From assembly GCA_018716885.1 (NCBI GenBank), contig DVJI01000011.1, positions 24,609-88,608 on the forward strand: a stretch of DNA of 64,000 nt, given 5' to 3'. Source of the DNA: Candidatus Enterousia intestinigallinarum (GTDB lineage Bacteria; Pseudomonadota; Alphaproteobacteria; Rs-D84). Positions 41,259 to 41,600 of this stretch are shown here, one piece after another (within the stretch, counting starts at the first letter, position 1; every line of letters begins with the position of its first letter). Both the position numbers and the translations under genes were made by a program. A model generated the notes under the pieces. That model had not been told where the DNA came from. It ran no database searches and worked only from the letters and a program-made list of their open reading frames with translations.

Positions 41259-41544
41259 AACCGGGCCGGTTCGATAGCATCCATATTTCCAAAATTAAAC
41301 GCCCCAATCCTGGGGCGTTGAATTTTGGAGGCCTGGGTCGGAAAGTTCGCATTTCCAAACGTTTTACGTTTGGAAACCGTTGCTGACGCAACTTGACTCA
41401 CCATTCGCACGGATTTTTCGGCGCAAGACACATTGCTTGAAAAATCCTGCTCTTATGCGAACCGGGCCGGTTCGATAACATCCATATTTCCAAAATTAAA
41501 CGCCCCAATCCTGGGGCGTTGAATTTTGGAGGCCTGGGTCGGAA
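41259..41544 (-). repeat. 85-bp direct repeat (tRNA-Cys 3' end plus terminator, 1 mismatch) at 41259-41343 and 41460-41544 enclosing a 116-bp multi-hairpin insert
   Basis: Read directly; offset 201 bp. Confidence 0.95.
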
Positions 41545-41600
41545 TCGAACCGGCATACAAGGATTTGCAGTCCTCTGCATAACCACTCTGCCACCAGGCC
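41527..41600 (-). tRNA. tRNA-Cys(GCA)
   Basis: ggcctggtggcagagtggttatgcagaggactgcaaatccttgtatgccggttcgattccgacccaggcctcca. Confidence 0.96.

Follow-up and report, generated by a model that had tools for sequence, protein, structure and literature searches.

The RtT repeats have, to our knowledge, remained an enterobacterial curiosity for some 45 years, and we know of no function established for them. Their description in 1978 reportedly gave a period of 178 nucleotides (nt) and 3.14 copies in Escherichia coli. The tyrT-tyrV locus of E. coli K-12 holds one copy between tyrT and tyrV and three after tyrV, each opening with an L-arm, GGGGAAGG(G/A)TGAGAA(C/G)CTTCGA, that is an imperfect complement of tRNA-Tyr nt 49-70, and continuing through a 3-nt loop, AGGTTCGA (nt 50-58), a core of ~66 nt and AATCCTTCCCCCACCACCA (nt 58-76); the annotation of the small RNA rttR stops precisely at the CCA of such a copy. 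Here we describe a locus behind a tRNA-Cys gene in a 64,000-nt stretch of the genome of Candidatus Enterousia intestinigallinarum (contig DVJI01000011.1; hereafter the window). The unit at this locus is built like RtT, yet it lies outside the family as Rfam defines it, and on balance we favour reading it as an RtT-like RNA trailer whose locus became a partial array by unequal recombination.

RtT RNAs are not restricted to E. coli, as those beside the tRNA-Asn and tRNA-Lys genes of Actinobacillus have been seen on Northern blots (PMC4986893). In the E. coli K-12 sequence (NC_000913, 1286700-1287540; locus L021), the RtT L-arms lie antisense to the 3' part of tRNA-Tyr, and reads from RttR could thus, speculatively, be mis-assigned.

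Anatomy of the tRNA-Cys locus

All features of the locus lie on the minus strand, where tRNA-Cys(GCA) occupies 41527-41600 (ARAGORN; Rfam tRNA model, 58.6 bits). The sequence-only reading of this region proposed a tRNA-Cys gene, a terminator, a 116-bp insert and an 85-bp repeat, with the T-arm opened inside its loop. ARAGORN, Rfam and a repeat search confirm each part of this layout, and the junction indeed splits the T-loop at nt 57/58-59. The 85-nt direct repeat (41259-41343 and 41460-41544) has a single mismatch (99% identity) and a spacing of 201 nt, leaving 116 nt of hairpin-forming sequence (41344-41459) between its copies. On the tRNA strand each copy reads TTCCGACCCAGGCCTCCA (nt 59-76), a terminator-like hairpin (stems at 41499-41520 and 41298-41319) and then the 30 bases AAATATGGATG(T/C)TATCGAACCGGCCCGGTT; the first 18 nt of copy 1 (41527-41544) are nt 59-76 of tRNA-Cys itself.

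While the duplication of the tRNA end is real, the view of the locus as an insert plus a duplicated end overlooked an inverted copy of the T-arm that precedes the sense T-stem strand. Read from the tRNA, the first terminator, T1 (41490-41526), consists of the stem-loop AACGCCCCAGGATTGGGGCGTT and an interrupted U tract, TAATTTTGG. It is followed by the L-arm ATATGGATGTTATCGAACCGGC (41466-41487), an imperfect reverse complement of tRNA-Cys nt 49-70 in which the inner part, ATCGAACCGG, is an exact complement and the outer part has decayed; in the relatives G024, G006 and G063 the L-arm is still a nearly perfect 23-nt complement. A single C separates it from CCGGTTCG (41458-41465), which repeats in sense orientation the T-stem 5' strand and T-loop UUCG (tRNA nt 50-57). 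The 114-nt core with its three hairpins (41344-41457), of the family termed type C below, leads into the tail TTCCGACCCAGGCCTCCA (41326-41343), an exact copy of tRNA-Cys nt 59-76 that includes the discriminator U and CCA, so that the junction takes the form CCGGTTCG-core-TTCCGACC...CCA and divides the T-loop between nt 57/58 and 59. Beyond the tail lie a second terminator, T2 (41289-41325), identical to T1, and the truncated start of a second unit (41259-41288), in which a copy of the L-arm plus CCGGTT ends at the T-loop.

Since the 85-nt repeat extends through the inverted T-arm copy, the locus is a tandem array of 1.42 copies with a 201-nt period, starting at tRNA nt 59, rather than an insert flanked by a target duplication. 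The repeat itself stems from the homology of the unit's tail and terminator with the end of the tRNA and the terminator behind it. In the relatives G017 and G043 a longer remnant of the second unit survives, and the repeats there reach 127 and 89 nt. With fewer than two copies, the Cys array goes unreported by Tandem Repeats Finder.

The order of parts is identical to that of RtT, in which the inverted T-arm with a partial acceptor strand reads GGGGAAGGRTGAGAASCTTCGA. Like RtT, the Cys unit lies directly downstream of its tRNA gene on the same strand, has, ahead of its core, an inverted copy of the T-arm and then the sense T-stem strand with UUCGA, and ends in a copy of the last 18-19 nt of the tRNA, CCA included. 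In both, the core closes with CGAR immediately ahead of nt 59 and a GUUGC-N-CA-GCAAC-type hairpin is present, and both form tandem arrays in register with the tRNA 3' end. The L-arm variant GAGAAC of E. coli recurs in the Tyr, Lys and Gly units of the Enterousia genome, placing tandem G-A opposite UUCGA, and this fits the tandem G-A motif framed by the RtT helices that a covariation review found supported (PMC8250186).

Within the core, helix Pc pairs 41455-41461 with 41346-41352 and is followed by P2 (41411-41447), the junction J2 CCGTGCGAATGGTGAGTCAAG (41392-41412), P3 GTTGCGTCAGCAAC (41379-41392) and P4 (41352-41376). The helices named in the sequence-only reading are all present, with GGUUCGCAU/AUGCGAAC closing three hairpins as described (GGAUUUUUC/GAAAAAUCC, GUUGC/GCAAC and UUUCCAAACG/CGUUUGGAAA), and three of the four are supported by relatives. 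The Cys region holds no plausible open reading frame, only short, overlapping ones with non-ATG starts, and protein coding was ruled out on that basis. A promoter-like site, ATTACA-16-TATAGT, is predicted by a consensus scan ahead of the tRNA (41614-41641), and a recF-like gene in the same orientation starts ~80 nt past the second repeat.

Recurrence, fold and distribution of the units

The Cys unit is one of many. In this assembly (919 kb, 98% complete, 44 tRNA genes), ~17 tRNA genes (~39%) carry such a unit, each matching its own tRNA. An exact or near-exact copy of the last 16-22 nt lies 95-200 nt downstream of 14 of them (Trp, Arg-CCT, Gln-TTG, Tyr, Gly-TCC, two Met, Glu-TTC, Pro-CGG, Cys, Arg-TCT, Gly-GCC, Arg-ACG and Lys-CTT), and diverged or degenerate versions follow Val-TAC, His (cut by a contig end) and Leu-CAA. 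This duplication of tRNA ends is far beyond chance. Besides those in the window, units lie behind ~15 tRNA genes on contigs C2, C3, C4, C6, C7, C8, C10, C11 and C13 (loci L022-L035). At every unit the L-arm is complementary to the unit's own tRNA (282 of 332 aligned positions Watson-Crick), and the order thereafter is the sense T-stem strand with TTCGA or TTCAA, a structured core of 44-150 nt and a tail starting from nt 57-59. Behind tRNA-Arg(CCT) and tRNA-Gly(UCC) the unit follows CCA directly, with no intervening terminator.

At least three core sequence families are present. Type A cores follow Arg-TCT, Arg-CCT, both Met and Pro; type B cores follow Lys, Arg-ACG and Val-TAC; and type C cores follow Cys, Trp, Tyr and His, with variants behind Glu and Gln. 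Types A and C have a module in common (z = 6.9), GCGRAYGGU(G)AGU followed by the hairpin GUUGCG-UCA-GCAAC. Type A cores also contain a hairpin, GGCG-GACGGTAGTA-CGCC, that resembles a tRNA D-arm, down to the GG of the D-loop.

The second unit of the window, at tRNA-Val(TAC), occupies 25811-26115 on the minus strand and shares the layout, as had been proposed; its direct repeat spans 53 nt at 91% identity, 195 nt apart. The tRNA (26039-26115) is followed by T1 (26006-26038), an L-arm (~25975-26005), a type B core (~25864-25974), a diverged tail, GAATCCCCAGCCATCCACCA (25844-25863), and T2 (25811-25843). The tail differs from the tRNA end GAGTCCCTCAACATCCACCA (26039-26058) at 6 of 20 positions, and its acceptor strand is matched by no tRNA-Val(TAC) in the eight related genomes aligned. 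CCACCA and the terminator beside the tail are identical over ~40 nt, and the two terminators are identical to each other. Either the tail was imported, or it diverged from the tRNA while the terminator was homogenised.

The proposal that the Cys and Val inserts form one family with conserved recognition motifs is weakly supported: they share one architecture, and their cores belong to different families. Both 8-mers on which it drew, TGAGTCAA and CCGTGCGA, do occur in both inserts, as does a third, AAATGCGA, but their co-occurrence is weak evidence and only marginally unusual, with two or more shared 8-mers arising in 7.3% of dinucleotide shuffles. Nor are the two shared by the other units of the genome: with one Met unit, His and Leu excluded from the scan, they are absent from 13 other units, save for CCGTGCGA in Arg-ACG. 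Genome-wide, TGAGTCAA and CCGTGCGA sit at Markov expectation (10 observed vs 7.9, and 31 vs 34), and GGTGAG likewise lies near it. TGAGTCAA falls in the near-invariant J2 of Cys-type units, and ATGAGT and GCCGYGCGAGGGA sit at opposite ends of type B cores; the two 8-mers thus mark family-specific conserved junctions rather than demonstrated common recognition sites. They are 5 nt apart in the Cys core and at opposite ends of the core in Val, and one idea is that circular permutation relates the type B (Val) core to the type C (Cys) core; when a core was doubled for the alignment, the gain in score was modest (z = 2.1 for Val, 5.0 for Lys).

The fold of the Cys unit was followed across relatives with a covariance model built from five Cys-locus units, with which 121 genomes of the order were scanned. 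Full-length Cys-type units were found in 17 genomes, 16 of the same genus and behind tRNA-Cys and one of another genus behind tRNA-Pro; Trp units gave weak matches confined to the core. In the alignment of the 17 sequences, 90.7% of cells are paired vs 79.5% in shuffles and 35-52% when partner columns are slid as a control, figures that lean towards structure as the alignment was fitted to the model. Fourteen pairs are altered on both sides, a number that none of 500 shuffles reaches. P2 and P4 contribute six co-varying pairs each, and P3 is almost invariant. Compensatory evolution of the core is thus seen in two of its helices, and the junctions are nearly invariant.

Two helices involve the T-strand. 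Pc (UUCGCA/UGCGAA) is paired in all 17 sequences, with one position 12 times G-C and five times G-U, and its 5 G-U vs 0 A-C mismatches are the sole clean asymmetry among the helices. H1, the hairpin of L-arm and T-strand, is 96.6% paired. Both use the strand GGUUCG, making them mutually exclusive. Mean pairwise identity is 94% over H1 and the T-loop, 85% over J2 and P3 and 93% over the 3' strand of Pc and the tail, and it amounts to 49% in P2, 40% in P4 and 48% in the outer L-arm.

Among close relatives the unit comes and goes. Empty sites, which had been suggested as something to look for, exist: in 20 genomes of the genus, five have a full Cys unit and one a 5' remnant, and in the others either a single terminator or the recF-like gene itself comes next after tRNA-Cys. 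Complete Val units are confined to the present genome and G024; the unit survives as a remnant in G017 and G014 and is absent from G007, G013, G003 and G006, a close relative of G024; the Cys units of G006 and G024 are near-identical. Where the unit is present, its tail and terminator match the end of the tRNA and the first terminator at 92-100% identity in 11-12 of 16 genomes, while terminator sequences vary from genome to genome. This combination points to continuing gene conversion or unequal crossing-over between the copies. In the exceptions G125 (L046, 1500-1700) and G095 (L050), the acceptor strand of the tail is different (GACACGCC; CCGACGACACGCCTCCA), and the second terminator departs from that behind the tRNA and is the same as the only terminator of the unit-less relative G014, which looks like inter-lineage recombination or an imported unit. 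Finally, in G114, of another genus (L052, 1500-1760), a type C core follows tRNA-Pro (76 bits with model R1), with an L-arm related to tRNA-Pro and a decayed tail; the core family has thus switched host tRNA over evolutionary time.

Transcript, element or scar

The Cys unit is, in our estimation, probably an RNA trailer of the RtT kind. The tRNA promoter would drive its transcription, reading through T1 at Cys and with no terminator to pass at the tRNA-Arg(CCT) and tRNA-Gly(UCC) units, and the transcript would fold into a multi-helix RNA whose 3' end, by analogy with the annotated RttR of E. coli, may be trimmed to a tRNA-like CCA by the enzymes of tRNA 3' maturation. As GGUUCG can pair with the L-arm or with the last bases of the core, CGAAC, the RNA may have two states. 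The junction UGGUGAGUCAA and the hairpin GUUGCG-UCA-GCAAC likely form a putative binding surface for a partner. As a working guess, the unit acts on factors that handle tRNA ends, standing in for the top half of the tRNA and its 3' end as a mimic or decoy. Unequal recombination and gene conversion between copies would homogenise the repeats, produce partial arrays and delete units, which would account for the patchy distribution among relatives.

Several observations weigh against an RNA trailer. A consensus scan found no promoter-like site between T1 and the unit, so that read-through of T1 is required at Cys, and T1 looks like a working terminator. The outer stem of L-arm and tail, the mimic of the acceptor stem, is strong in just 4-5 of 17 units and has decayed in the Cys unit of the window. 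G-U vs A-C mismatches number 15 vs 17 and 9 vs 5, with no overall strand asymmetry, which leaves room for a folded DNA strand. The presence of a full-length Cys-type unit in only 17 of 121 genomes of the order marks it as dispensable, and the type C core behind tRNA-Pro elsewhere, together with presence and absence that differ between close relatives, fits a spreading element equally well as an RNA gene. Lastly, the Rfam RtT model (RF00391) has no match at E<=1 in 25000-42500, the region with the Cys and Val units. Full-length matches elsewhere in the genome, the best of them the Tyr unit (29.4 bits, E=0.018) and another the Arg-CCT unit (24.1 bits), stay below the gathering threshold of 45 bits; the four E. 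coli copies score 133-137 bits.

A gene-less, selfish element colonising tRNA genes is a less likely, though not negligible, alternative. Its arms would be templated in both orientations from the 3' third of the target, and any RNA would be incidental; it would move as folded single-strand DNA or RNA by means of host enzymes or an unrecognised protein. Such an element would account for multiple copies at ~17 of 44 tRNAs, each with cognate arms; for core families shared among tRNAs of different kinds (type A at two Arg, two Met and Pro; type C at Cys, Trp, Tyr and His, and at Pro in another genus); for the patchiness in close relatives (the Val unit in G024 and not in G006; the Cys unit in 5 of 20 genomes of the genus); for the imported look of the tail and second terminator in G125, which do not match the end of the tRNA and the first terminator; for a Val tail that matches no tRNA-Val(TAC) in the eight genomes compared; and for mismatches free of RNA-strand bias. 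Against it, no two units of the genome are near-identical and type A cores visibly differ, giving no sign of recent movement, and the junctions are conserved far more than a hairpin recognition signal would require. Moreover, we know of no mechanism that builds both arms from the target.

The enzymes of the genome do not favour such an element either, since reverse transcriptase, TnpB, an IS200-type transposase and any integrase beyond XerC and XerD are all lacking. Only two genes match PF00589, with XerD-like and XerC-like models as their best NCBIfam scores, so that the suggestion of a tyrosine integrase targeting these tRNAs found no candidate in this 98%-complete genome. Searches of the genome for a reverse transcriptase (RVT_1, PF00078), the TnpB zinc-ribbon (PF07282) and a Y1 transposase (PF01797) gave no match, and control genomes were positive in all four domain searches. 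Several specific identities were rejected accordingly. A TnpB omega-RNA, with the tRNA end as guide and TTCGA as adjacent motif, lacks a TnpB domain in the genome, and is further rejected because its own guide would target the intact tRNA gene lying 120 nt upstream. An IS200/IS605-derived element is ruled out by the missing Y1 transposase, and a retroelement, whether a tRNA-primed one with the L-arm as primer-binding site or a retron or group II intron derivative, by the missing reverse transcriptase. A core that splits a GANTC (CcrM) site in the T-loop, coupled with genomic avoidance of GANTC, was also considered; the genome holds 4486 such sites vs 4887 expected under the Markov model and does not avoid them.

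By the same genome-wide Markov comparison, several palindromic hexamers are strongly under-represented (TTTAAA, 90 vs 1278; GTTAAC, 14 vs 178; ATTAAT, 74 vs 423; CAATTG, 212 vs 685; GTATAC, 118 vs 349), a depletion that suggests restriction-site avoidance.

The RNA-trailer and selfish-element readings are not mutually exclusive. It is conceivable, although we doubt it, that RtT-type units, those of E. coli included, form one widespread class of protein-less, tRNA-specific elements that build their ends from the 3' third of the neighbouring tRNA (inverted and direct, split at nt 58/59) and spread by an undescribed templated copying, with the GGUUCG switch as their working part.

Improbable, in our view, is a role in cis, either as a regulatory leader or as a fail-safe double terminator protecting the recF-like gene against transcription that runs on from the strong tRNA promoter. 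That gene does begin ~80 nt beyond the second repeat and in the same orientation, RtT is classed by Rfam as cis-regulatory, and a second terminator would reduce read-through; however, other units precede unrelated genes, most relatives have tRNA-Cys and then recF with one terminator or none, and a spare terminator needs neither a conserved 114-nt core nor a copy of the tRNA end. A phage or genomic-island scar at the T-loop of tRNA-Cys, with the 85-nt repeat as attL/attR and the insert as a deletion remnant, is close to refuted and the least probable of all, for while duplicated tRNA 3' ends are a classic mark of integration at tRNA genes, the repeat spans a terminator and an inverted arm beyond the tRNA part, the same modular architecture recurs at ~17 loci, with three or more conserved, co-varying cores, only XerC and XerD are present as integrases, orthologous units with compensatory changes occur in 17 genomes, and the RtT repeats of E. 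coli are built alike without any island.

Two further features of the tRNA complement may be recorded. A permuted, two-piece tmRNA gene lies at C10:40415-40746 (ARAGORN), as expected in Alphaproteobacteria, with the tag peptide AANDNVRLAMAA. The tRNA-Leu(AAG) gene (C10, 225263-225348) is directly followed by a run of short TCTGTTA/TCTGTTC-type repeats (tctgttctctgttatctgttctctgttatctgttatctgttatctgttctc).

Comparison with described systems

Tyrosine-integrase elements may use the tRNA segment from T-loop to CCA as their attachment site, and sublocation classes of integration at tRNA genes are said to have been set out by Williams in 2002. The Cys locus resembles these elements in its direct repeat of the tRNA 3' segment from the T-loop and in its intact tRNA gene. 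It differs in having no integrase or cargo, in a structured, co-varying core, in recurring at ~17 loci of one genome, and in a repeat that, unlike an att repeat, runs 67 nt past CCA through the terminator and the inverted arm. The palindrome-associated elements derived from IS200/IS605 and the omega-RNA scaffolds of TnpB are likewise small, hairpin-rich and gene-less, with a scaffold followed by ~18-20 nt identical to the flank; the units described here differ from them in arms that are specific to each tRNA and in a genome with no Y1 transposase or TnpB zinc-ribbon domain.

A further likeness is to tRNA-like signals, such as the t-elements of plant mitochondria and mascRNA, and to minihelices, as the 5' arm and tail of a unit would together form an acceptor-plus-T-stem helix with a free CCA. 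This helix is best kept at loci L037, L038, L043 and L045, and also in the Trp, Tyr, Lys and Met units. It differs from those systems in being a continuous helix with a large branch at the position of the T-loop, and its outer stem has decayed in the Cys copy.

RtT, the closest of the described systems, is set apart by several features. Its core of ~66 nt in E. coli compares with 114 nt and three hairpins at Cys; the Cys unit is split from its tRNA by an intrinsic terminator that is itself part of the repeat; and the host is a gut alphaproteobacterium with a reduced genome. The Enterousia genome further differs in its three or more core families behind ~39% of its tRNAs. The RtT blueprint thus recurs behind more than a third of the tRNA genes in a genome of less than 1 Mb, in several core families, with compensatory evolution and ongoing homogenisation of the repeats. 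A genome so small rarely retains useless DNA, so the units either serve tRNA biology or represent an unusually successful gene-less element that targets tRNA genes, and whichever holds would be new. Aligned, the 17 Cys-type copies provide a structural model, in which two competing helices share the T-loop strand beside an invariant junction, that is testable on the RtT repeats of E. coli.

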